From positions 1-64,000 of IMG/VR virus record IMGVR_UViG_3300033143_005857: a stretch of DNA of 64,000 nt; one strand, 5' to 3'. How positions within the stretch are numbered: position 1 is the first letter of the stretch; each line of letters starts with the position of its first letter. Source of the stretch: a virus. This document shows, piece after piece, positions 1 through 59,741 of this stretch. The position numbers and the translations under genes were made by a program. The notes beneath the pieces are model-generated. The model was not told where the DNA came from. It saw only the letters and a list, made by a program, of their open reading frames with translations, and searched no databases.

Positions 1-1651
1 GCTGCCATACATGTTAAGTGCCTTTAACTATGCCGCACGGCTTAAATTACAAGCCGTTTGCTACTGCTAAATTGCCATGCTAAGTTTATTTATACAGCCG
101 TTGCATGCAAATTAAAAGCGTTTGGGCTGCTATAACCATTACTGGTTTACGGTGGCAGCGTGGTAAGTTATTAAAATGCTGCCAAAGTTGGTTTTACACG
201 TATAGGGTTATTTTTAGCACTACTAAGTGCCATTTTACCCGTTTGTTTTACCAAATAAGCGGTAAGTGCCTATACCTTGGCTTTGCAACCACACACAGCA
301 GCCCCACGTGGCTAACTGGGCTGTGTGCTAAGCAATACAGCAAGCCAACTACTGCCTAAACAACGCAACAAACAAATGTGCTATTATTTAGCGTGCAATG
401 GGCTGCCATACGCAACAATATTTTACTGGGTTTTTACCATATTTTTACCGTGTTATTACCATGCTTGTTTATACTTAATTTTATTATGGGTGTAGGCTAT
501 TTAAATATACCCTACTATATAAATAACTATGCTGGTGTGTGCTGTGGGCTAAGTGGTGGCAGCAAAATTTGTGGAAAATATGGCTGTGGGGGGTAGTGGG
601 CAATATGGTTTTTTGGCTTAAACGCTGCTGGTGGGCTGTGGGCTTGGAAAACTTAGCAAATATTTGGGTTTTTGGCAATTATTTGTAATAAATGGTTCAA
701 ACGCACTTAATGTTAGTGTGTGCAGCATGTAGGGCTGGAAAACATGGCACAAGTGCCTAATAATATGTATTGCTGTGGGTTGTTGTGGGCTACTTAGTGT
801 TTTTATGCCACTGTGCTGCTTGTAGGGCTGGAAATGTTAGCAAATAGTTGCTTAGTTATAGCCGTATACAGTAATAAATAGGCTATTATTAATTTTGCTA
901 CGTTTGAGCCGCTTGTGGCTGTTGGTGGGCAAGCAAATGTGTTTTTGGTGCTGTATAAATAGTAATTTGGGTTGTAGGTAGGGGTTGGGTTTTTTGGGCT
1001 ATAAAATGGCTTGCAAATAGGGTTTTTGTGCGTGTTTGGGGTGTGTTTTTGGGGTTTGTGGGCTACTAAGTTAATAATTTAGTTGTGTTTTAGTGCTGTT
1101 GTGTGTGCTGTGTGTGTTTGTATGGCACAACAGTGGCTAATAATTATGTTATTTTGCATGTATTTGGTTGGTGCGTGCAGTAGCACACTGTTGTGCGTGT
1201 TTGGTTGGGGTGCATTTGGGCTGTTTGGTGGCTTGTTTGGTAGCACTATGGTAGGTAATAAATTAGTAGTAATTAGTAGTAAGTTGGTGTGGCTTGTGGG
1301 CTAATTTGGGTTGTAAATTGGTAGTATAGTTGTTATTTTGCACGCAATTGCTAATTAATAGTATTATATTAATAGGCAGATAGTTAGTGGGTTGCTGTTG
1401 GTGGGCTATTTGGTGGCTTATACGTATGTATAGGCTAATATAGGGCACTTTAGTGCCATGTTGGTGGTGGCTTGCAGCCAGCCATGTAGGTATATAATGT
1501 AATAACCAAGCCAACGGCTTGCGTAAGCATATACAATACTAATTAATAGGCAATTAGATTGCTAATAGGCTGCTAATAGGCAATTTAGTAGTATTAATGT
1601 ATAAGTATATATAAATGGAAATATATTTAATGCCCTATAACAAGCCATAGG

Positions 1652-1719
1652 GCTTGTAGCAATTAATACCCGTGCCCCCCTATATATATATAATATAGGG
1701 CAATTTAGGTATTAATTAG
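1652..1719. repeat. Imperfect palindrome AATTAATACC..CCC(TA)n..GGG..GGTATTAATT, copy 1 (origin-like)
   Basis: Inverted homolog of 35212-35279. The 15-mer TTAGGTATTAATTAG (1705-1719) is the exact reverse complement of 35212-35226. Confidence 0.8.
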
Positions 1720-1829
1720 TATGGCTGCTGTGGGCTGTTGTAGGGCACGTAATATTACTAAGTATATACCCACTATATACCTACTGGGCACGTGGTTAAA
1801 GTTTAAGCGTGTGGCACGCAAATTTGTAA

Positions 1830-1849
1830 TGGAAAATAGGTTTAAATAG
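1830..1849 (+). promoter_or_regulatory. Archaeal-type BRE+TATA promoter candidate
   Basis: TGGAAAATAGG-TTTAAATA; a similar TGGAAA-TATATTTAA lies at 1616-1630. Confidence 0.45.
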
Positions 1850-2143
1850 TAATAGTGGCTTAGGTTTATTAATATCGCACACACACGCTGTGTTTACCAG
1901 TTGGGCAAATTGGTGCGTGGTTGGGCTGGTTATGGCACACTATGTAATGCAACGTAATAGCCAACACACCACACACTACATACAACGTGGTTGCGTAAAA
2001 TATACCATGTATTAGGCACAGTGCCACGTGCCACAACGACATCACCCAAGTGTAAAACTATGCAACATACAGCCAAACCCAACAAGCACCACGTGGAAAA
2101 AAGCCAGTGCAGCAAGACTATAAGGGGAGGGGGGGGTTGCGTC

Positions 2144-2479
2144 GTGTCGTCCGAGGATCTCAGATCAAGATCTCAAAAAATCACTAACGGGAGTGCCTTT
2201 CGCTACAAATCTCTATGCAAGTTAATTAGGTCCTTAACTGAGTCGCAAGAGTATGCCTTTATCACTGATTACCGTAAACTTGTCGACACACTTATTGATT
2301 TCGTAAACGAATTAGACCATTCCCCAAATGACCCAAAAACACGCAATTACAACCATAAACAATTCACCTCTGAAACCGTTGCACGACGTCGCCAAGAAGC
2401 CACCGATCAATTAGCAGCCTACCATCTTGCCAAAGCCAAAGAGAGAGAAGACCCAAAAATTTTTACAGACAATCTATAA
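2144..2479 (+). CDS. Hypothetical protein (likely GTG start at 2144; 3' part of track ORF 1991..2479)
   Basis: In-frame GTG after GGAGG/G-run gives MSSEDLRSRSQK...; normal D/E content begins here. Confidence 0.45.
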   Translation: MSSEDLRSRSQKITNGSAFRYKSLCKLIRSLTESQEYAFITDYRKLVDTLIDFVNELDHSPNDPKTRNYNHKQFTSETVARRRQEATDQLAAYHLAKAKEREDPKIFTDNL

Positions 2480-2520
2480 CGTTTACGTAAACGAAATATA
2501 ACATATACGTAAATGAAATA
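2478..2520. repeat. Tandem pair (22-bp period) of palindrome CGTTTACGTAAACG, site A
   Basis: AACGTTTACGTAAACGAAATAT-AACATATACGTAAATGAAATA; matches 7506-7543 and 49517-49554. Confidence 0.85.
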
Positions 2521-2592
2521 GACTGCTTCGCAGCCTAAAAATCTCAAAAAATCTCAAAAAAAAATCCAACATTAACTGGTTTGAAACCTCCT

Positions 2593-3372
2593 ATGACCAT
2601 TAAACATAAGCCGATCCTTAACAAATGTAAAATTTGCAACTCGATCCATACTCCCCAAGTCAATGATATGCTTGAGAAGAACGTGCCTCAAACAGTAGTA
2701 GTCGCCTATTTAAAGGATAAAGGACTCATACTCTCTGCTATGAGTGTGTCTCGACACCTTCATAACTGTTTACTGAAAGACGGTAAAAAGCAACGGCAAG
2801 TGCAAAAAGGTGGCATACGAAATGCCCAAGCACAAGCCAAGCATAATACTAAAAAAGGAAAGGATGTCAAACTTCGAAGTAATCAAAAGAATATGAACAG
2901 AACTGACACCAATCATGCCAGAGACACCAACGGAGCACGGAAACGACGAGCCTATATAGCAGAACTGGAGAAATTGGAGAAGGATGTTGACGTCGTAAAT
3001 GAATATGTATTTATCCTAAAAGCGTCGAAAGAGCGTGTTGCACGTGGTTTAGTGGAGGAGGATACAGCAAACTTAGTTCTCGCTACAACTGGGAAAGCCC
3101 TATCAGATTACGGTGCTCTCCTACAAAAATTTAATGAAATCACACAAGGTATGGAATCACTTCAATCTCTCCGTTTTGCAGAACTCATACAAATGGTTGG
3201 TAATATGTTTGCCAAAACTCCGATTACCGACCGTTCTCGGAACGAATTGCTTAATGTAGTTGATCAATACATAACAAATACTAAGATGACCGAAGAAATG
3301 GAAGAAATTAGCCTTATACCATCAGAAATTAGAAAATCGAAACTTAATAAAAAACCAAGTGTATTATTATGA
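2593..3372 (+). CDS. Putative terminase small subunit (N-terminal Zn/HTH-like DNA-binding region, helical C-terminus)
   Basis: CKIC...HLHNC motif, basic linker, position upstream of the large terminase. Confidence 0.5.
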   Translation: MTIKHKPILNKCKICNSIHTPQVNDMLEKNVPQTVVVAYLKDKGLILSAMSVSRHLHNCLLKDGKKQRQVQKGGIRNAQAQAKHNTKKGKDVKLRSNQKNMNRTDTNHARDTNGARKRRAYIAELEKLEKDVDVVNEYVFILKASKERVARGLVEEDTANLVLATTGKALSDYGALLQKFNEITQGMESLQSLRFAELIQMVGNMFAKTPITDRSRNELLNVVDQYITNTKMTEEMEEISLIPSEIRKSKLNKKPSVLL

Positions 3373-4186: not shown

Positions 4187-4396
4187 ATGCCAAAAAGTAA
4201 GACTAAAAGCAAGATTAAAGAATGGGACGCTGGATACTTAGAAGAATGTATTGCAAGCAACGATAAGCGTGCTCTCTTAATTTTCCTAATGCAATCTATC
4301 GATACAACTGTTCTCCGCTTAAATAAGTTTAAAGGATGTATAGAATTGTATCCAAATGTTCCAGACTTAGAAGATCAATTAGATGAGGAAGAGTAA
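4187..4396 (+). CDS. Hypothetical protein
   Basis: ORF whose stop overlaps the terminase ATG (TAATG). Confidence 0.45.
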   Translation: MPKSKTKSKIKEWDAGYLEECIASNDKRALLIFLMQSIDTTVLRLNKFKGCIELYPNVPDLEDQLDEEE

Positions 4397-6024
4397 TGGC
4401 AGCCGTTAATGATGCTATCCAACGTGCGTTTGATGAATACCAGACCAATACGATTCAAACCAAGTTGCTTAGTGAGGCTGGCATTTCAAGCCCATCCGAC
4501 CCTATGTTCTTTCGAATTCTTAAAGCATCGCTTGATTTTAGTTATCATGCAGAACTATTCTTCCCAGACCCATCTGACCCCAACAAGCCATTACGTTTGG
4601 AACCTTGGCAGAAAGGTGAATTAAAGTATGCTCAATGGGGAGACGGGTTATACGATAAGGCTGGTGGTGCTATTCGCAAGCCGATTGCTATTAATTCGCC
4701 TCGTGGTTTTGGAAAGTCTGTATTCTCATCCATAACTGCTGATGAATTTGCTATACATTTTCCGTTTACTTTAATTGCCCTTTTTTCTACTTCTCAAGAC
4801 CAAGCAAACGACCTTATGGCGAAGGTTAAGTGGTTTATTAAAAACTCAATATATGCCTTTATGATCAATAAAAAGATGGATTCTAAGACACAAGTCGGCT
4901 TGATAAATGGCTCTGTGATTAAGGCATTTCCACAATCAGAAGTGACCATTCGTGGATTTCACCCACATATTAAAATAGTTGACGAAAAATCCCGTATAAA
5001 ACGAGAGATACTTGAATCAGCCATACGTCCTATGGGTCGTAAGGTTTGCTGGCTTGAAATTGGTATTTCAACACCGTTTGGTATGGCTAACAACCATTAT
5101 GAAGATTGTATGAATCCAGACGTGTTTCATGTAAAACTCCTAAAACCTACTGATGTATCGTGGGTTGATGAAGAGAAACTTGCAAGAGAAGTTAAAATGA
5201 TGGGAGATCGTATTGCTAAGCAAGAATTGTATGCAGAGTTCGTTGAGGACGCAAGTTCTGTGTATAAGCCGAGTTGGATAGAACTCATGCTTAATCTTAA
5301 ACTTGAACCACAATTGAAAGGTGTAGCAGCACGATCATACATTATGGGTGTAGATTTTGGCAAACATCGTGATTATACAGCGATTACTATACTTCATGTA
5401 GAACGAAATGGAATGATAGTTATCGATTGGATGGAACGGTTTTTAGGCTTAGATTACAAGTTAGCAATAGAAAGAATACTACATTTAACCAACATCTTTA
5501 ATATCAAATTAATTGTGCCAGATGGAAACAGTATTGGTATAGCAATTTTGGAAGAACTTGCAAGACATGTGAAAGTGCCACTATACCAGACTAAGTTAAA
5601 GAAAAAGGATAAGAAAGGTAGAGAAATGTATAGGCTTGGATTTCTCTTTAGTAATACAAGCAAGTTAAACATAGTGGATGAGTTAGTAGTAAAAATGATG
5701 AATTCTCGTATTAAATGCCCACATCACCATAATACAACAGATCCTCAAAACGATCGATTTATTTTCAAAGTGCTCGAAAACGAAATGATACAATTCACGT
5801 TTACTCGCACACCATCTGGTAATATCGTGTTTGGACACCCAGAAGATAACAAATCGCACGATGACACACTTATTTCACTGATGTTGGCTGTTTGGGGAAT
5901 TAGATATGCTCAAGCAATGGACGCAACAATTAGCGGTGTGCCAACGATGAGACTGGCTAAGAGTGACCGTTTAGCCTCTCGCACGTTTGGTGTTGAGAGA
6001 AGTGCTTTGTTTCAACGTGGTTGA
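4396..6024 (+). CDS. Terminase large subunit
   Basis: Walker A PRGFGKS, Walker B IVDEKS, ISTP coupling motif, nuclease motifs GVDFG and HDDTL. Confidence 0.95.
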   Translation: MAAVNDAIQRAFDEYQTNTIQTKLLSEAGISSPSDPMFFRILKASLDFSYHAELFFPDPSDPNKPLRLEPWQKGELKYAQWGDGLYDKAGGAIRKPIAINSPRGFGKSVFSSITADEFAIHFPFTLIALFSTSQDQANDLMAKVKWFIKNSIYAFMINKKMDSKTQVGLINGSVIKAFPQSEVTIRGFHPHIKIVDEKSRIKREILESAIRPMGRKVCWLEIGISTPFGMANNHYEDCMNPDVFHVKLLKPTDVSWVDEEKLAREVKMMGDRIAKQELYAEFVEDASSVYKPSWIELMLNLKLEPQLKGVAARSYIMGVDFGKHRDYTAITILHVERNGMIVIDWMERFLGLDYKLAIERILHLTNIFNIKLIVPDGNSIGIAILEELARHVKVPLYQTKLKKKDKKGREMYRLGFLFSNTSKLNIVDELVVKMMNSRIKCPHHHNTTDPQNDRFIFKVLENEMIQFTFTRTPSGNIVFGHPEDNKSHDDTLISLMLAVWGIRYAQAMDATISGVPTMRLAKSDRLASRTFGVERSALFQRG

Positions 6025-7634: not shown

Positions 7635-9137
7635 ATGGCTAAAAAAAAGGTAGTTGGTAAAGAAAAAATACAGCAAAATACATCGATAGTTGCAAGTCCA
7701 GCGTTTATTCAAGGAATTCCAGCTTCAAAAAAGCCAATACAAGGTGATGATGTAGAGAAACAAAGCAAGTGGGATGAATACTTAGAAGATCCAGAGATCT
7801 TAAAATTAATGTATATTATGATTAATCGCTCAAAACAAAATAAGCGATGGTTATACAATAATGATAACGCTTTAAAAGCGTCTGGTTATATGCTTGCAAA
7901 TGCCGTAATAGGTGCAACTGGTTTAGAAACAAAAACAAATCGAGATGATGTAAGAGAAGCACTTAGTGCGTATTTTAAGGCAATTAATACTAATAAAATT
8001 ATTCAAATTTCAGTGAAAGATCAAATTTGTTTTGCAGATTCTTTGTTCTGGAAAGAGTATGACTTTGAGAAAGGGCTTATTATTCCACGTTGGATTGATT
8101 ATCTTACTGTTCGACGTATTAAAAACAAATATACTGGTGATGTTAAGTGGATCCAAGCAACATACTTAGATTCACGTATGCCTAAAAAAGATGGTAAAGA
8201 ATGGGAAAAATATGAACCTTATCTTGACTACTTTAACAATCTCAGTTCAGAAGACGACAATCCAATGCGAGACAAGTTAGTTAAAGCACATATTATGGAA
8301 GATGAAGCATTAAATTTTAACTACTTTCCTTCTCCGCTAATAGATTCTATTGTTGAAGTTGTTTTATGGAAAAAGTGGATGCAATACGATGCTAAGTTAG
8401 GTGGGCAGAAATATGCTACTCCGTTAATGGATGTAGAAGTGACACGACCAGAAAGCGAAGATTTAAGCAGCGAAGAGTCTGCAGCACTTATGGCAAAGAT
8501 TGCTGAAGATTTGAGTAGAATGATGAATTTTGGTGTTTTGGCACATGGAGATGCAATTAAATTGCAATCAATAAGTCAACAAGGGCAAGTCTTTAATTAT
8601 GTGCAATATCTTGAATATGCTGACAAGCAAATCCATAAAGGAGTAATGGTATCTGCAAACTTGCTGGAAGCAAGTGGTTCTGAACTTGCAACAAGCAGAA
8701 CAGTGAAAGATATGTTTAATATTGTTATTACTGCACTTCGCAAGCGTTATATTAATACATTTACTGATTTAGCCTTAGAATACTTGTATTTTATTGGTAT
8801 GGATGTAGATGAAACAGAATTTCAGTTAATCTTTAGTGAAGACGATGCACAACAACAAATGACTCAAAATGAAGAATTTAATGCAGTTATGCAGTTATTT
8901 GACAGAGGAGTTTTACGAGATGAAAATGAAGTGCGTAAATATGTGGCTAAATTTGGAATGGACTTAGATCAATTAAGTGAAGAGGAAATTGGATTAAAGG
9001 CAGAAGAAGAACTTCAACAAATGCTGCTTGAACAAGAGTTAGAAATAGAGCAAATTCAAGAACAAGGCAAAATAAAGGCAGAACAACAATCTCAAGCAGC
9101 GTCTCAAACTAAAACTAAAACTGGTGATAAAAAATAA
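7635..9137 (+). CDS. Portal protein
   Basis: 500 aa, between terminase and head genes, helical, KYATP and SELATS segments. Confidence 0.75.
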   Translation: MAKKKVVGKEKIQQNTSIVASPAFIQGIPASKKPIQGDDVEKQSKWDEYLEDPEILKLMYIMINRSKQNKRWLYNNDNALKASGYMLANAVIGATGLETKTNRDDVREALSAYFKAINTNKIIQISVKDQICFADSLFWKEYDFEKGLIIPRWIDYLTVRRIKNKYTGDVKWIQATYLDSRMPKKDGKEWEKYEPYLDYFNNLSSEDDNPMRDKLVKAHIMEDEALNFNYFPSPLIDSIVEVVLWKKWMQYDAKLGGQKYATPLMDVEVTRPESEDLSSEESAALMAKIAEDLSRMMNFGVLAHGDAIKLQSISQQGQVFNYVQYLEYADKQIHKGVMVSANLLEASGSELATSRTVKDMFNIVITALRKRYINTFTDLALEYLYFIGMDVDETEFQLIFSEDDAQQQMTQNEEFNAVMQLFDRGVLRDENEVRKYVAKFGMDLDQLSEEEIGLKAEEELQQMLLEQELEIEQIQEQGKIKAEQQSQAASQTKTKTGDKK

Positions 9138-35182: not shown

Positions 35183-35211
35183 CTATTTTTTTCCACCGAA
35201 AAGCAGCTGAT

Positions 35212-35279
35212 CTAATTAATACCTAATTTCCCCTATATATATATATTAAGGGGAACAAAGGGATTAATTGTCTAAAAGC
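35212..35279. repeat. Imperfect palindrome with (TA)n core, copy 2 (origin-like)
   Basis: CTAATTAATACCTAA...CCCTATATATATATATTAAGGGG...GGATTAATTG; inverted homolog of 1652-1719; sits where the two gene blocks converge. Confidence 0.8.
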
Positions 35280-50580: not shown

Positions 50581-50825
50581 TCTAATTGTTCCATTTTGAG
50601 TTTTTTGCGATATTTGTTGGCAAGTGTTTTGTCTTGACGATCAAGAAATGTTCTATAACCTTCATCTGTTTTGTATGCGTTTAATGACCTTTTTCTATTT
50701 TTTCGTGCAAATGCTTTATTGATTCTATTTGGTCTATGTGGACAATTAACACAAGGCAAAGATAGGTCGCATAAAAGCACATTTCTACATGCGTTTTTAC
50801 TGTTTAAGTTTTTCTTTTTTACCAT
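50577..50825 (-). CDS. Small Cys-rich basic protein
   Basis: ORF track. Confidence 0.45.
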   Translation of the reverse strand: MVKKKNLNSKNACRNVLLCDLSLPCVNCPHRPNRINKAFARKNRKRSLNAYKTDEGYRTFLDRQDKTLANKYRKKLKMEQLE

Positions 50826-51813
50826 ATCCCATCAACTTTACATGTTTTATATTTGCTTTAATTCTTTTCTTTGCTAATAAAATAGCTTTCTTATTTTTAT
50901 CTATACCTATAAATTGTCGATTTAATTTTTTAGCAACAAGTAATGTAGTTCCACTACCACAGAATGCGTCTAATACAAGATCATATTCATTAGAAGATGT
51001 TTTGATTATTCTTTCAAGTAATGATTCTGGTTTTTGTGTAGGATAGTTAAGATTTTCTTTAGAGGACGAACTTAAATATGTTATATCATCCCATAACGAA
51101 TGAACTCTTTGTCCAGCATAATTATCAGCATAAATCTTATAACGCAACTTGCCATTACTTGTAAAATAAAATATACGGTTGTTTTTAGCCCACCTTTCAT
51201 CAATTGTTTTTTGTGACCATCTCCAACCAATATCTGTTGTTTTAACAACCTTTTTTCCACTTGGATAATAAAATGTTCGTGTTTCTCCATTAAATTTGAA
51301 ATTTTGTTTTTGTTCTAAACTTGCAATTGGGTTAAATTTTCTATTAGTTATAGGTTCTATATAACTAAATTTGGTTAGATTTTTGTTAGATCTATATTGA
51401 ATATTAAATGTATAGATTGTAGACTTAACGTAAAAAAGGATAGTATCAGTAATATTATCATATTCGTTGCTTAAATCGTGTGGTGAACATCTTTTCCATA
51501 TTATCTTACTTTTCATATTTTTATAACCAAATATATTGTCGCACACTACTCTAAGATAACTATCTGCATGATAATCACAATGTAAATAAAAACTACCAGT
51601 TCTTTTTAATATTCGGTAAATTTCCATAACTCTAACTTTTATAAATTGAATATAATCCATTATAGAATAAAATTTATCATTAAACTCTACAAAATCACGC
51701 TGTGTAAAAAATGGTGGGTCGATGTAGCATAGATCAACACTTTCATTAGGAAGATTTTGCAGAATCTCTAAATTATCTCCACAAATTATTTTTTTAATTG
51801 ACTTTTTTACCAT
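50797..51813 (-). CDS. Beta-class N6A/N4C DNA methyltransferase
   Basis: IDPPF (motif IV) before YPTQKP and DAFCGSGTT (motif I). Confidence 0.9.
   Translation of the reverse strand: MVKKSIKKIICGDNLEILQNLPNESVDLCYIDPPFFTQRDFVEFNDKFYSIMDYIQFIKVRVMEIYRILKRTGSFYLHCDYHADSYLRVVCDNIFGYKNMKSKIIWKRCSPHDLSNEYDNITDTILFYVKSTIYTFNIQYRSNKNLTKFSYIEPITNRKFNPIASLEQKQNFKFNGETRTFYYPSGKKVVKTTDIGWRWSQKTIDERWAKNNRIFYFTSNGKLRYKIYADNYAGQRVHSLWDDITYLSSSSKENLNYPTQKPESLLERIIKTSSNEYDLVLDAFCGSGTTLLVAKKLNRQFIGIDKNKKAILLAKKRIKANIKHVKLMGYGKKEKLKQ
50814..50840. repeat. 27-bp direct repeat flanking the MTase (copy 1; copy 2 at 51802-51828)
   Basis: CTTTTTTACCATATCCCATCAACTTTA in both places. Confidence 0.85.
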
Positions 51814-52120: not shown

Positions 52121-52384
52121 TTAATAAACCTCATAACTTCCTTTAATAAACGACCTTATTAGTATTATATAACCAATAATAATAAAGATAAATAATATTC
52201 CAATAGCACACAATATTATAATCCACCAACTATTTAATTCAACAAGTAAAAATAAATATCCGCTTTGATAATTATCAATTATTGTAAATAGTAGCAATGT
52301 AAACACAATAAAACTTAGTGCAACAAGACTACCAACCAAAACAAAAAACCAAGCAGCAACCAAATTATTTTTAAATTTAATCAT
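52121..52384 (-). CDS. Two-TM membrane protein
   Basis: Two hydrophobic helices. Confidence 0.55.
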   Translation of the reverse strand: MIKFKNNLVAAWFFVLVGSLVALSFIVFTLLLFTIIDNYQSGYLFLLVELNSWWIIILCAIGILFIFIIIGYIILIRSFIKGSYEVY

Positions 52385-53060
52385 TTTCTTGTTCTCCTAT
52401 ATCATCAAAGATAATTGGGATTAATGTTTGAAAATAGTTTAGAACTTCTAACATTATTTCTCTAATTTGTGGATGAGCGTATTTGCTTGTTCTCAGCTTA
52501 AGAATATGTCGCCACTCTGTAGGATTTGCACTTATTACAATATGTGTTTTAACATCAATTGGCAATACACCTCTTGCTTCTTGTGGAGTTTTACCTTCCT
52601 CTATTAATGTTTTGTAAGTAGATTCAGCAACAAGCATATTTTGCAGCCAATAGTGTGCTGGAGTAATAGGCTCATACATGAAATCTATTGGCATATTGAG
52701 TTTTTGAGTTGCTTCTTTAATCCATAAAGGTTTGATAACAGTTAATTCTCTGTTATGTTTTTCCTTATTGTAATTGCAATAACGAGTGCTTTCTTGTGCA
52801 TAACTTGCCAATCGATGTCTAACCAATTCGTGACTTAAACCACGATTACTAATTATATCAACTGTTATTAATCCACCATGCTCAAGCATAGCAAAATGCC
52901 CTTTAGCAACAAGGTCTTTGCATAATTTTTTATAACTGTTCTTAGTTATACGTTCCTCTGATTTATAGCAAACACGTGCTATTCGTTCAATTCTCTTAAG
53001 CATTTTTATACCGTCTAAGTCCTCATGTATAAACCAATTTTGCTCTATTACCTTTACCAT
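52377..53060 (-). CDS. thyX: FAD-dependent thymidylate synthase
   Basis: ARVCY, LEH, ELVRHRLASYAQESTRY, ARGVLP, AHPQIR. Confidence 0.95.
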   Translation of the reverse strand: MVKVIEQNWFIHEDLDGIKMLKRIERIARVCYKSEERITKNSYKKLCKDLVAKGHFAMLEHGGLITVDIISNRGLSHELVRHRLASYAQESTRYCNYNKEKHNRELTVIKPLWIKEATQKLNMPIDFMYEPITPAHYWLQNMLVAESTYKTLIEEGKTPQEARGVLPIDVKTHIVISANPTEWRHILKLRTSKYAHPQIREIMLEVLNYFQTLIPIIFDDIGEQEND

Positions 53061-53924
53061 TTAATTCACAACTTTTTTGAAAGTTAATACATATTCATGA
53101 TATTTTACTGTTCTCCGCTGCTTTCGCACGGCATTATCTACTCCGCTCACAAATGGTGTTCGAATTACATTTATCACAACATCCCATAATTCAAACCCAG
53201 CAGCCATGAAAAGTGTAATTGTATCGCCACTAAACCAGTGATATTTTCCATTTCGTCTAAAATCATTTACAACATAAGTGACAAACTTGTTTGGTTTTAA
53301 TATCTCATACAATATCTCAATTATAAAACCGTAATCAACCAAGAATGCTTCATACGTTTTAATGTCGCTTAGTTGTCCGTCGCAAGACTCGTATCTCTCT
53401 ACATTCCAATATGGAGGGCTTGTGTAGATGTAATCAAAGAACTCACTCAAATTACCATTTGTATCAAAATCTTTAGCGTCTCCAAGTGTTAGGTGGATAT
53501 TTTTAGCCCATTCTTTGCCAGACGCAATAAGCTCTTTGACACGCTGGTCAACGTTATCGTAATAACTTTCAACAATTTCATTACCGTATCCTTGTCTACC
53601 AAAGTAAGCAGCAATAATACTTGTAGTTCCACGATTCATAAATGGATCTAAAACTTTATCCCCTTCGTCAGACCAAATCTGCAAGCAACGTTTAGCAATG
53701 TCTGGATTGAACTCAGAAAGTGGTTGTTTACCATTACCGTCTCGATATCGTTCCATACTATCATCTTTGACGAGCCGTGTCAATTCTTTTGATTTAGTAA
53801 TATCCCATATACTTTTAGGGATATAACCATATCTGTCTTTGATCTTGCCTTCTGTAATAACAGTTTCCTTTCCAAGCAAGCCCTTAATTTTCATTCGTTT
53901 TCCGTTTTTTATTAATTTTGCCAT
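53061..53924 (-). CDS. DNA methyltransferase (SPPY type, probably N4C or N6A)
   Basis: DPFMNRGT then TSPPYW, HEYVLTF. Confidence 0.85.
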   Translation of the reverse strand: MAKLIKNGKRMKIKGLLGKETVITEGKIKDRYGYIPKSIWDITKSKELTRLVKDDSMERYRDGNGKQPLSEFNPDIAKRCLQIWSDEGDKVLDPFMNRGTTSIIAAYFGRQGYGNEIVESYYDNVDQRVKELIASGKEWAKNIHLTLGDAKDFDTNGNLSEFFDYIYTSPPYWNVERYESCDGQLSDIKTYEAFLVDYGFIIEILYEILKPNKFVTYVVNDFRRNGKYHWFSGDTITLFMAAGFELWDVVINVIRTPFVSGVDNAVRKQRRTVKYHEYVLTFKKVVN

Positions 53925-56436: not shown

Positions 56437-56509
56437 CGGGAAAAGAGGGCTTTGAACCCTCACCTTCTCAGTGCTAACCAAGACGTGCAACCAAATACAC
56501 TATTTTCCC
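56437..56509 (-). tRNA. tRNA-like element with aberrant 8-nt anticodon loop (identity unassignable)
   Basis: Acceptor GGGAAAA/TTTTCCC+G, D-stem GTGT/GCAC, anticodon stem TCTTG/TGAGA, T-arm GAGGG-TTCAAAG-CCCTC; no encoded CCA. Confidence 0.7.
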
Positions 56510-59274
56510 TTAGTTGTATAACTTGTCAGTCGTTTTACTTTAAATTTTGAAACAATTTCATCCCATGTAATGTCTATTGCTTCAAGTATAGTTTCTATTT
56601 TCATTTTTATTGTTTTCTCTATGAGTGTATTATAATCTATTATTTCTACAAGATGAGGTGGAATATAATAATTATCATCCAGTGCAATAATTTCTATTCT
56701 GCTAAATGGATGTGGAACTTTAGAATATTTAATATACATAAACTTTGGTTTAGATCCTCCACCATAATTTGTTTGTGCTCCCCAATAACCACTAAACTCA
56801 TTTGTCCAACGTGCAGCACGTATCCAATCTTGGTTTCCGTATGTTTGTAGTGGCTTTGAAATACCTTTAGAGAAAGCCAACTCTTCTAACTCGTATTTAC
56901 CATTTCGTATTTTAAACAGTTCCTTCTTAACATGTTTAATCATATCCGCTTTAGGTTTGCCATAGCAAGCCATTCGAAGCAGTTTCTTCATAAGCGTATT
57001 TCCAACACGGCTCATATCAGATCTGTCAAATCCTTTAATATCTAACTTATCTTTTTCATAATCTTCCCATACAACATGTCCAGCATATCTTTTCTTTGCT
57101 GCTCGGTTTGAATCCTTTTTGCGAACCATGAAAAGTGTTTTATAAATTTTTTCTGCTTTCATGAGAAAATAGTGCTTGTCAATATTGAATATTTCGTTAA
57201 AGATATCATACTTGCTGTTAAGATAGTTAGCCAAATATTTTGCTTCCTTTAAGCATTCTTGTGTATTATTTGATTTTAACAACGGAAATACACTGTCTGT
57301 ATCTCCATAATACACAATATACATAAGTTTTATTAGAAGATCGATAGAATACTGGATAACTATACGACCAGTTGCTGTAATGTTTGCAAATATTTTTCTG
57401 TTGTATAGTCTAAACACTTCTAAGCCAAGCACACCAAAAATTGAATTTGTAATAAATTTTACAACAACTTGAATACGGTCAGTAAGCTTGCTTTCGGATA
57501 TTTTGCCAGCATTCTTTTGCGTTTTAACAAGAGTTTTTAGGCTGTCACGATATTCTATAAGGTCGATTATAATCTCCGCTAAAAAGGATGTTTTATCCTT
57601 TCTAAAGTAAACATCTTTAATTGGTGATTTGATGAGTTCTGGTATACGTTCTGGTTCTGGGCTGTAGACTATTGTATCTTCACCCATATTTAATGTTAGC
57701 ATAGCATTTGGATACAAACTCTTTAAATCTAATACAGTAATCCAGTGTTGAATGCCTTTTTGAGGAGCTTGGATAACCAAAGCACCTTTTGATTTTTTAT
57801 CTTTATTTTCAGCACGTCGTTTGCTTGGTAATACAATTTGTTGTTCTTTAGCTTTAAATAGCATATAAGAATCTACAATTCTGCTGTTTTTAAGCACATC
57901 TTCAAAGTTGCAACCGCTAAAACATTTAACATCATAAAAAAACTTAAATACTCCTTCCTTAACACCGATAGCGTATTCTAAGAACACGTCTTGCACGTTA
58001 TACAAGATAAGTTTGTTAATATCATGTTTATACATAGCATCTATGCCATTATGCTTAACTTTGCCAATACCAAATAAGTCTAAAGATACATTATCCAATT
58101 TGTTGCTTTCACGTTCGTGTGTTAATGTTTTAACAAATCCTCGCCATGTATCAAACACTATCTTGCCTTTAATACGTGCAAACCCACTTTTATCTATCCA
58201 TACTGAACGTAATGGACTTAATTCTGAAGCATCCAATCGTAATTTTTTCATCCGTTCGATTATGTATGGTGCATCAAATTGCTTAAAGTTCCAGCCAGTA
58301 GGTATGTCTGCATTCATGTCTTTCCAAAAATCTATAAATGTATTAAGCATATCTATTTCGTTGTTAAATGTCCACAAACTTAATCTATAATGTGGTTTGA
58401 GTTCGTTTTTAACAAATTCTGCAGTTGAAATGTATTCTTTTAATTTTTCTGTTAGTGTATAATGTTGTGTTGTATAATTTGTATACCGTTTTTCTTCTTC
58501 GGTTAAATTTTCGTATGTAATATTGTCTGGTATAATTAAATCTATATCTATTATATCTTCATACTCTTTTTTTAATACATCTAATTCTACTATTGTTGAT
58601 TTAATACTTTTTTCAATTGCTGCTGGTATAGGATTAGTATAATATTTTGTATATTTTGCACGATTTTTAAGATCCTTTCGAAATACAAAGCAATATAACT
58701 TTTTTGAATAACTATCTAAACATGATAGGCTGTAAATACGATTTACTGGGTTTCTATACGATGGAAAGCGTCCACCAGTTTCTACTGTTGATACTTCAAT
58801 ATCTATATGCAAACGCTTTAATTCTACTCTGAAATCGCATGGTTCTATTTTATCTTTTCCATAAAATACGTCTTCCTCTTCCCCTTCGATTTCAAACCCA
58901 GATTTAATACCAAGTTCTAATAAAGAACGTGTTGTAAATTCTATATCGTCTTCAAATGTTTTGCTAAATCTAACACGGAAACCTTCCTTATCTTTTCTAT
59001 TTCCACCGATATCAGATGGTGTCCTCATTACTATTTTCTTTAACTGCTCTTCTTTAATAGATTTCCAGCCTAAAGGTGTCATATCAACAATTTTAACAAT
59101 TCGTCGATTTTTAGGCACTGGTGTTGATTTTAATACATAAAAAAATGGACGTAAGTTATAAACACAAACATGCCAGTCTCTTAGTTGCTCATCACGACCA
59201 AACAAATGAACGATTGGTTTATCGTCTGATATAGTATATTCTGCAATAGATAAGGCAATTTTCATGTTAATCAC
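56500..59274 (-). CDS. polB: Family B DNA polymerase
   Basis: DIEV, GWNFKQFD, YNVQD exonuclease motifs; DLKSLYP, K...NS.FG, YGDTDS, KKRY. Confidence 0.97.
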   Translation of the reverse strand: MINMKIALSIAEYTISDDKPIVHLFGRDEQLRDWHVCVYNLRPFFYVLKSTPVPKNRRIVKIVDMTPLGWKSIKEEQLKKIVMRTPSDIGGNRKDKEGFRVRFSKTFEDDIEFTTRSLLELGIKSGFEIEGEEEDVFYGKDKIEPCDFRVELKRLHIDIEVSTVETGGRFPSYRNPVNRIYSLSCLDSYSKKLYCFVFRKDLKNRAKYTKYYTNPIPAAIEKSIKSTIVELDVLKKEYEDIIDIDLIIPDNITYENLTEEEKRYTNYTTQHYTLTEKLKEYISTAEFVKNELKPHYRLSLWTFNNEIDMLNTFIDFWKDMNADIPTGWNFKQFDAPYIIERMKKLRLDASELSPLRSVWIDKSGFARIKGKIVFDTWRGFVKTLTHERESNKLDNVSLDLFGIGKVKHNGIDAMYKHDINKLILYNVQDVFLEYAIGVKEGVFKFFYDVKCFSGCNFEDVLKNSRIVDSYMLFKAKEQQIVLPSKRRAENKDKKSKGALVIQAPQKGIQHWITVLDLKSLYPNAMLTLNMGEDTIVYSPEPERIPELIKSPIKDVYFRKDKTSFLAEIIIDLIEYRDSLKTLVKTQKNAGKISESKLTDRIQVVVKFITNSIFGVLGLEVFRLYNRKIFANITATGRIVIQYSIDLLIKLMYIVYYGDTDSVFPLLKSNNTQECLKEAKYLANYLNSKYDIFNEIFNIDKHYFLMKAEKIYKTLFMVRKKDSNRAAKKRYAGHVVWEDYEKDKLDIKGFDRSDMSRVGNTLMKKLLRMACYGKPKADMIKHVKKELFKIRNGKYELEELAFSKGISKPLQTYGNQDWIRAARWTNEFSGYWGAQTNYGGGSKPKFMYIKYSKVPHPFSRIEIIALDDNYYIPPHLVEIIDYNTLIEKTIKMKIETILEAIDITWDEIVSKFKVKRLTSYTTKGK

Positions 59275-59741
59275 TTAGTTTTTGTTTTCTTTTTTGGGTT
59301 GTAAATTTTGTATTTTTCTAAACCTACAAAATCTTCATGGTCTACTTTAAGAACATGTGTCTTTACAGTTGTTGAAAACTTCTTTTTGTTTGATTCTCCA
59401 CGCACAATTTGTGCAATCTTAAACCATTTTGGTTGAATTAAGATTATAATATTTTCAACAGCTTTAATTGGCGAAGCATGTGCTCCACAACTGTAAATAT
59501 CTATAGATACATATAGTTCTTCTGGATATGTATGCAGACATAAATGGCTTTCAGCTAACAGCAAATTAATAGAAACTCCTTGTGGTTGAAATTGATGCTC
59601 TGTTGATTTAATTAATTTGTTATTGCTTAACTCAACTGATTTAAAGCAATTTGTTAGCAAAGTTATTTTGTCATCTAATAACTTTGGTTTACATTGACAT
59701 TCAAACAAATCCAATATTAGATGCTTTCCTCGTGTTATCAT
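59271..59741 (-). CDS. speD: S-adenosylmethionine decarboxylase proenzyme
   Basis: GKHLILDL, FQPQGVS...LAESH...HTYPE...DIYSCG. Confidence 0.9.
   Translation of the reverse strand: MITRGKHLILDLFECQCKPKLLDDKITLLTNCFKSVELSNNKLIKSTEHQFQPQGVSINLLLAESHLCLHTYPEELYVSIDIYSCGAHASPIKAVENIIILIQPKWFKIAQIVRGESNKKKFSTTVKTHVLKVDHEDFVGLEKYKIYNPKKKTKTK

Follow-up and report, generated by a model that had tools for sequence, protein, structure and literature searches.

What keeps one dinucleotide motif almost entirely out of the first two kilobases of a viral sequence? The question arises from IMG/VR record IMGVR_UViG_3300033143_005857, a virus contig of 76,386 bp (numbered G000:C1). The window analysed here is its first 64,000 nt, and the contig stretch that includes the block beyond the window is designated L003. 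Window positions 1–2035 contain nine GA (574, 647, 738, 831, 906, 1379, 1557, 1618 and 1832) and two TC (697 and 1875), with neither in 1–573, and our recount matches exactly the positions listed in a preliminary description made from the letters alone. Base composition predicts 133 GA and 103 TC (~235 together) in this interval, giving observed/expected ratios (O/E) of 0.07 and 0.02. The remainder of the window (2036–64000) uses both freely, as had been noted, with an O/E of 0.97 for GA and for TC alike. When the ten symmetric dinucleotide classes were scanned in 1-kb windows over the whole genome, GA/TC was the sole purged class and no second purge appeared. The proposal that a single double-stranded motif is excluded therefore holds: GA and TC are both purged, and no other dinucleotide pair is.

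The preliminary description placed the purged block at 1–2140. The purge is real and sharply bounded beside the packaging genes, but both of its proposed ends had to be moved. The purge runs across the contig junction, from ~73,421 to 76,272 and then from 1 to 2,035, for a total of 4,887 bp, in which GA and TC together number 33 against 583 expected (O/E 0.06). The contig ends share a 114-bp overlap, which shows only that the assembly closes on itself. On the + strand, GA occurs between 73,421 and the contig end only at 74,548 and 75,132, and TC begins to thin at ~73,260; the left edge of the purge lies within the seventh of the early open reading frames (ORFs) described below. The right edge at 2,035 is sharp: it is followed by a transition stretch with conserved boundary motifs (2036–2140), and the next gene holds 26 GA and 24 TC. 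The block has a GC content of 39%, compared with 34% for the genome, and is enriched in GC and GGC; TT is not enriched.

The part of the block beyond the window is coding. An array of 22 small minus-strand ORFs, the early genes, extends from 76,184 down to 67,899, and the block holds the first six to seven of them (54–129 amino acids). Genes free of Asp and Glu, for which the preliminary description had proposed to look left of the window, were found in this array: Asp and Glu together make up 0–2% of the first four ORFs, 6–7% of the next two, and 9–21% of the later ones. We compared the codons of the seven purged ORFs (733 in total) with those of genes elsewhere. Serine is encoded by AGY 42 times and by TCN never, where TCN accounts for 63% of Ser codons elsewhere; GGA is used in 0 of 30 instances (41% elsewhere) and CGA or AGA in 0 of 14 (53% elsewhere), and all seven stop codons are TAA, with no TGA. 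Codon junctions contain one GA and three TC, against ~29 and ~37 expected. Of the 20 message-strand GA in these ORFs, 19 form the first two bases of in-frame Asp or Glu codons, and the early frames are therefore real. Gln and Asn are raised to 8.6% and 7.6%, compared with 3.6% and 4.7% elsewhere, and Lys is not raised. Replacement of Glu by Gln requires a G>C change, and retention of Ser requires a switch of the full codon family.

Rewriting also extends to sequences that do not encode protein. The ribosome-binding site, GGTGA genome-wide, is GGTGT in the repeated cassettes that precede the early genes, and the loop of the first cassette hairpin, for example ATTTCG or AAATCG in unpurged copies, is ACAACG or ATTTAG in purged ones. 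A palindromic element of ~60 bp, with a (TA)n core between CCC/GGG flanks, is present in two copies in the window, one in the block and one far outside it. Where the outside twin has GA or TC, the purged copy has other bases, mostly through transversions. The purge is due to selection, and not to mutation, decay or misassembly, as shown by the codon choice, the replacement of Glu by Gln and Asp by Asn, the rewritten ribosome-binding sites and the rewritten palindrome copy. Proteins, codon usage, ribosome-binding sites and regulatory hairpins are all affected. A cause at the level of translation or tRNA is ruled out, since the purge extends to codon junctions and to non-coding DNA. Window positions 1–2035 contain only short, start-poor ORFs and no convincing one, in keeping with the earlier view that the block in the window is probably non-coding, and Rfam and tRNA scans of the block gave no matches.

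To place the block among relatives, we relied on homologs of the large terminase subunit (TerL), which exist at 46–99% identity. Scans of IMG/VR and of species genomes, with TerL alone and with a TerL alignment, returned no relatives, and the DNA of relatives came from one metagenome scan that yielded ten loci, of which only L004 reaches the block, covering 228 bp of it. L004 comes from another sample and is the closest relative available (TerL 74% identical). Its first 228 bp contain no GA or TC, compared with 27.6 expected, and cannot be aligned with the purged DNA of the window; the purge is therefore maintained while the sequence diverges. Beyond its purged stretch, L004 shows AAAAGCCARTGCA, a G-run, GTCGTCCGA, TAGATCA and CTAACGGG as in the window. 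The preliminary description had named a syntenic region of normal GA/TC content in relatives as a finding that would count against its stealth reading. Such a region is seen in L005, a 75-kb contig (TerL 65% identical) with a syntenic 0.9-kb intergenic region normal in GA/TC, but not in L004, which is purged with the same edge.

The same two viruses share a set of avoided longer words. In the rest of the genome (65.7 kb, 2,141–67,800), CCGG, CGCG, GCGC and GGCC are each absent, as are GTTAAC, CATATG and GTGCAC. GTAC and CTAG occur once each, against ~207 expected by composition (146 and 109 under a Markov model), and counts are similarly low for the non-palindromic CAGG/CCTG (2 vs 165 expected), GTAAC/GTTAC (8 vs 110) and CGTAG/CTACG (2 vs 52). 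For three further words, avoidance becomes stricter from the rest of the genome, through the other early genes, to the block: AGCT falls from an O/E of 0.50 through 0.26 to 0.11 (2 vs 17 expected), GATC from 138/207 observed/expected through 3/19 to 0/17, and TCGA from 138/207 through 7/19 to 0/17. Complete words of 4–8 bp are thus missing genome-wide, as in classical restriction-site avoidance, and the purge of a 2-nt word exceeds that definition. Since word avoidance is genome-wide and strictest at the early end, the virus relies on the absence of targets. L004 avoids the same set of words as this virus, and CTAG, GTAC and CAGG are not avoided in L005; the purge accompanies a particular defence landscape, as seen in two genomes versus one. 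Other relatives have other sets, with L008 and L009 avoiding GATC, TCGA and CAGG.

The block lies immediately upstream of the packaging module, and the gene order read from it is early, replication, structural. The replication module includes a family B polymerase, a PriL-like protein, an RFC-like clamp loader, an ERCC4 nuclease and a Hef-like helicase, and we conclude that this is a tailed virus with archaeal-type replication genes. Its host is probably archaeal, because the ribosome-binding sites are GGTGA, the T-tract terminators have no preceding hairpin, and the nearest structural cluster of the polymerase consists mostly of Methanobacteriota. A search of 328 Methanobacteriales genomes for spacers with 20 kb of the virus, in which two candidates per genome were scored, gave low-complexity matches only (74–96% identity).

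We hypothesize, with moderate confidence, that the block is a leading stealth segment maintained by selection, consisting of the ~2-kb non-coding leader and the first six or seven of the 22 early genes. The sharp right edge is located where cos or pac sites are often found, directly ahead of the first packaging-module gene, and for lambda and T7 it is the DNA packaged last that goes in first. Because the block adjoins the probable packaging site, it is most likely the last-packaged and first-delivered end of the virion DNA: packaging would run rightward from the conserved boundary, and the block would face host defenses alone, before any early protein is made. Selection has cleared almost every GA and TC from both strands, and a defense that needs this two-letter core in double-stranded DNA would then find ~18-fold fewer targets. 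Candidate agents are archaeal type I CRISPR-Cas systems with a TCN or TTC protospacer adjacent motif (PAM), or an assortment of restriction-type enzymes whose sites contain GA/TC. The order of entry, its timing and the agent behind the purge are our inferences; the hypothesis is consistent with the extreme site avoidance, with the thinning of AGCT, GATC and TCGA towards the block, and with the sharing of both the block and the avoidance set by L004.

A more specific version, which we put forward only tentatively and consider rather doubtful, is that the first-delivered 4.9 kb has lost the TC core of the PAM (TCN/TTC) of the host type I CRISPR-Cas system on both strands. The PAM check of type I systems is the best-defined 2–3-nt reader of double-stranded DNA in prokaryotic immunity, and we offer it as a candidate, not a finding. 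If this version is true, no protospacer could be acquired or attacked in the block while it is alone in the cell, an anti-CRISPR strategy that needs no protein. In either form, the purge implies a GA/TC reader with strong effects on fitness, and the affected segment marks the DNA that matters first in infection. Should the agent be a CRISPR PAM or a new short-motif defense, purged blocks could serve as a sequence-only finder of the leading ends of uncultured viruses, and those in metagenomes could let the specificities of host defenses be inferred.

Several points weigh against a leading stealth segment. Headful packaging with permuted ends would remove its positional logic. We know of no restriction enzyme that reads a bare dinucleotide, and evasion of 4–6-bp sites would not require giving up Asp and Glu. 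With 33 GA/TC left, the virus can gain only a quantitative advantage. The purge is missing from the 65% relative, and the trait is therefore young or host-specific. Finally, a purely double-strand reader does not predict a second, strand-specific tier of TC loss that is seen in the 15 early genes beyond the block (67.9–73.3 kb).

In these 15 genes, message-strand TC occurs at 0.45x its level in other genes, in all contexts. At codon junctions TC is at 0.26x and GA at 0.97x, and the use of GGA, CGA and AGA is almost normal. This weaker TC tier is strand-specific, cost differences cannot account for it, and a complete explanation of the purge has to cover it. Message-strand TC falls stepwise to zero in the block, and message-strand GA (Asp/Glu codons) climbs more gradually with distance from it. 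Both patterns favor a reader of TC/UC, and perhaps of GA, in single-stranded DNA or RNA, an explanation that we regard as unlikely overall. Such an agent might be an endoribonuclease, a TC-specific deaminase with selection against the changes it makes, an ADP-ribosyltransferase of the DarT type (TNTC) or an enzyme like CmdT, which targets GA in mRNA. Transcription early in infection would expose the message strand of all early genes, and near a DNA end resection or two-strand transcription would expose the other strand as well. A precedent is CmdTAC, whose CmdT attaches ADP-ribose to adenine within GA in single-stranded mRNA (PMC11618068). However, this GA-specific defense is confined to RNA and comes into play late, when triggered by the capsid protein, whereas here non-coding DNA and both strands are purged. 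Evasion of CmdT would remove GA from the message strand of transcribed sequence only, and the unpurged early genes lose TC, not GA, although GA is what such an agent would hit there. More generally, both strands of the gene-free 2-kb leader are purged, a DNA end or a transcription boundary is still needed to explain the sharp right edge, and two specificities or two exposed strands have to be assumed; no such enzyme is known for archaeal hosts.

Alternatively, the virus might mark its own DNA at a very short GA/TC motif, through its two N6/N4 methyltransferases or an unrecognized enzyme, and the motif-free segment would remain unmarked where the host polymerase transcribes first or where modification-dependent nucleases look first. 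We consider this improbable. Both methyltransferases belong to PF01555, and the closest relatives of solved structure have target sites that contain GA (MboIIA, GAAGA; CcrM, GANTC; DpnA, GATC), but the likeness is limited to the catalytic core and is uninformative on the motif. The depletion of message-strand TC across the early genes would be in line with an effect on the template strand. N6-methyladenine is, however, not known to hinder transcription, and there is no clear need to purge the non-template strand or the non-coding leader. A phage enzyme that reads the GA dinucleotide on DNA is exemplified by DpdA of phage CAjan, which directs 7-deazaguanine modification of G at GA and GGC (PMC7544227); GC and GGC are enriched in the block. 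Self-modification of the DpdA type was rejected, since no match to DpdA/TGT (PF01702) was found in six frames of the genome, where 14 of 14 control genomes match, and none to QueC (PF06508, preQ0 synthesis).

A structural or regulatory property of the DNA, such as wrapping by or exclusion of archaeal histones, a role as origin, or dense coverage by an early regulator, is in our view less probable again. Spectral analysis of 1–2035 gave peaks at 10.3–10.6 bp for WW (W, A or T) and GC dinucleotides, at 11–17x the median power (16–17x for the GC and WW peaks), a hint of curved or histone-phased DNA, and the leader contains oriented repeats and an origin-like palindrome. Against this, the palindrome twin at 35.2 kb works with GA and TC present, a mechanical need is unlikely to justify the loss of Asp and Glu from six proteins, and we know of no protein or structure that would need a 5-kb stretch to lack one dinucleotide step on both strands.

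DddA- and APOBEC-like deaminases classically target TC/GA, and the purge could in principle be the mutational footprint of such a TC-specific cytosine deaminase with no selection for avoidance, which we hold to be very improbable. Hypermutation of this kind would leave TT/AA products, AT enrichment and transitions only, but the block has a higher GC content than the genome and no excess of TT, Glu gave way to Gln (G>C) and not to Lys, Ser was kept through AGY, the palindrome twin differs by transversions, and the surviving GA lie in frame or in a repeated motif; this origin was rejected. An assembly chimera or foreign insert, suggested by the breaking of two independent contigs within the purged region, is scarcely credible and was rejected because purged and unpurged genes alike carry the same early cassette, the purge is present at both contig ends, which overlap by 114 bp, and L004, from another sample, has the same junction; proteins of the block are, moreover, recorded on 2–3 contigs.

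The early genes share a distinctive organization. A near-identical, co-oriented cassette precedes 19–20 of the early ORFs and separates unrelated orphan ORFs. It consists, in order, of a T-tract, TTTACGGTAT, hairpin 1, ACGTAAA, hairpin 2, AAAAGGTGTAAA and the ATG, and is probably a terminator–promoter–leader unit. Hairpin 1 is variable, 9–10 bp long, and shows compensatory changes; TTTACG and CGTAAA of the cassette complement each other. Several annotated early ORF starts (MVARQPP...) are read-through of the cassette. Elsewhere in the genome, the cassette was not found except for a match with one mismatch to its 11-nt core (+ strand, 30,308), and a search of IMG/VR for its pattern gave five chance-like matches, none of them purged.

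The proteins of the block matched no family in PHROG or Pfam and have no paralogs within the early array. Three of them, searched further, returned self matches only, apart from a weak one (E 7e-6) that covers a short part of an unrelated 464-amino-acid protein. AlphaFold2 models of two block proteins, made without an alignment, had predicted local distance difference test (pLDDT) scores of 43 and 50, too low for a fold search, and the ESM Atlas model of a 124-amino-acid acid-free protein (pLDDT 0.66) had no named neighbors. The block proteins are Gln/Asn-rich and, being net basic and almost free of acidic residues, are not acidic DNA mimics of the Ocr/ArdA kind. Such acid-free early proteins constitute an unusual natural experiment in protein chemistry.

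The leader contains numerous direct and inverted repeats, which we grouped into families D1–D7. Its G+T-rich core carries an array of TGTGGGCT on the strand whose 3′ end would lie at the putative terminus, so that the oriented motif array faces the DNA end. An exact GCTGGTGG (the E. coli Chi octamer) at 627 is probably a coincidence. Of the copies of a TGGAAA motif, three sit inside a repeated GGGCT(T)GGAAA element. The palindromic element might serve as an origin, terminus or regulatory site. The positions of these features and of genes elsewhere in the genome are collected in Table 1.

Table 1. Features of the purged block, its right boundary and other parts of the genome (window positions unless a contig stretch is named).
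Feature	Position	Strand	Evidence or remarks
GA/TC-free non-coding leader	1..2035	.	9 GA + 2 TC vs 235 expected; continues leftward as L003:11421-14272 (G000:C1:73,421 on)
G+T-rich core	501..1500	+	65-71% G+T on + strand; repeat families; six TGTGGGCT copies, all on + strand
TGGAAA motif, six copies	572, 645, 736, 829, 1616, 1830 (span 572..1837)	+	contain 6 of the 9 surviving GA
Palindromic AT-core element, purged copy	1652..1720	-	alignment with twin at 35211-35279
Palindromic element, unpurged twin	35211..35279	+	at late/middle gene convergence point
Right edge of purge, candidate packaging/terminus site	2036..2200	+	motifs conserved with L004: AAAAGCCARTGCA (2099), G-run (2124-2136), GTCGTCCGA (2146), TAGATCA, CTAACGGG (2184)
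ATCTCAAAAAA repeats, upstream of first packaging-module gene	2169..2566	+	read directly; similar repeats in L004
First large + strand gene, putative small terminase subunit	2593..3372	+	assigned by position only; no family matches; position conserved in L004
Large terminase subunit (TerL)	4396..6024	+	phrog_2, 8e-28
Portal protein	7635..9137	+	phrog_113, phrog_9232
N6/N4 DNA methyltransferase 1	50797..51813	-	PF01555, 5e-48
ThyX	52377-53060	-	between the two DNA methyltransferase genes
N6/N4 DNA methyltransferase 2	53061..53924	-	PF01555
tRNA-like element	56437-56509	-	Rfam tRNA, 45 bits; no ARAGORN anticodon; begins where the polB gene ends
S-adenosylmethionine decarboxylase	59271-59741	-	directly upstream of polB
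Early cassettes	L003:6400-13800 (G000:C1:68,400-75,800)	-	before 19-20 early ORFs
Block proteins	L003:11372-14184		nearly without Asp/Glu

The closest parallel is the first-step-transfer segment of T5 and BF23, a few kilobases at one end of the genome in which small pre-early genes lie beside a long, repeat-rich non-coding region. In T5-like phages, restriction, CRISPR and other nucleases act only via sites within this segment, which is kept free of such sites (PMC10644984). The block resembles it in its six to seven small ORFs (54–129 amino acids) with conserved cassettes, and in its lack of defense sites (GA/TC 33/583; GATC and TCGA 0/17 each; AGCT 2/17). A kilobase-long terminal direct repeat of the T5 type was not found, the block being present once and the contig ends sharing the 114-bp overlap only, and homologs of A1, A2 and Dmp were not detected among the block proteins by PHROG and Pfam, or among the three that were searched further. 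Unlike in T5, the non-coding region lies on the terminal side and not on the inner side, the avoidance acts at the level of a dinucleotide and rewrites proteins, and the host is probably archaeal.

In Murciavirus (Autographiviridae), motifs in the leading region alone decide sensitivity to the type I restriction–modification system Mme2I (PMC12455610). The early genes studied here would point in the direction of entry, as in the Murciavirus leading region and in the transcription-coupled entry of T7-like phages, but the Murciavirus case concerns one bipartite type I motif, and the present one every GA/TC step over 4.9 kb.

Depletion of PAMs offers a third comparison. TCN is the PAM of archaeal type I-A2 systems and TTC that of haloarchaeal I-B systems (PMC3737346). 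Phages of hosts with I-C systems are depleted in GAA/TTC (PMC4246573), Pseudomonas phages are slightly depleted in the I-F PAM CC (8.27% vs 8.74%, PMC12174588), and in phages that carry anti-CRISPRs spacers map earlier (bioRxiv 10.64898/2026.10.15.759504). As in PAM depletion, a 2–3-nt double-stranded motif is selected against here, on both strands and independently of reading frame, and TC is the core of a real archaeal PAM. Published PAM depletion is genome-wide and slight, whereas the present purge is ~94% complete and confined to one segment; our literature search for a comparable dinucleotide purge found only such slight, genome-wide depletion. Avoidance of targets in a leading region is already known, and a near-total, sharply bounded dinucleotide purge that reaches protein composition is apparently undescribed. 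It shows how far the avoidance of a target motif can go, extending to regulatory DNA, to codons and to the amino-acid make-up of several proteins.

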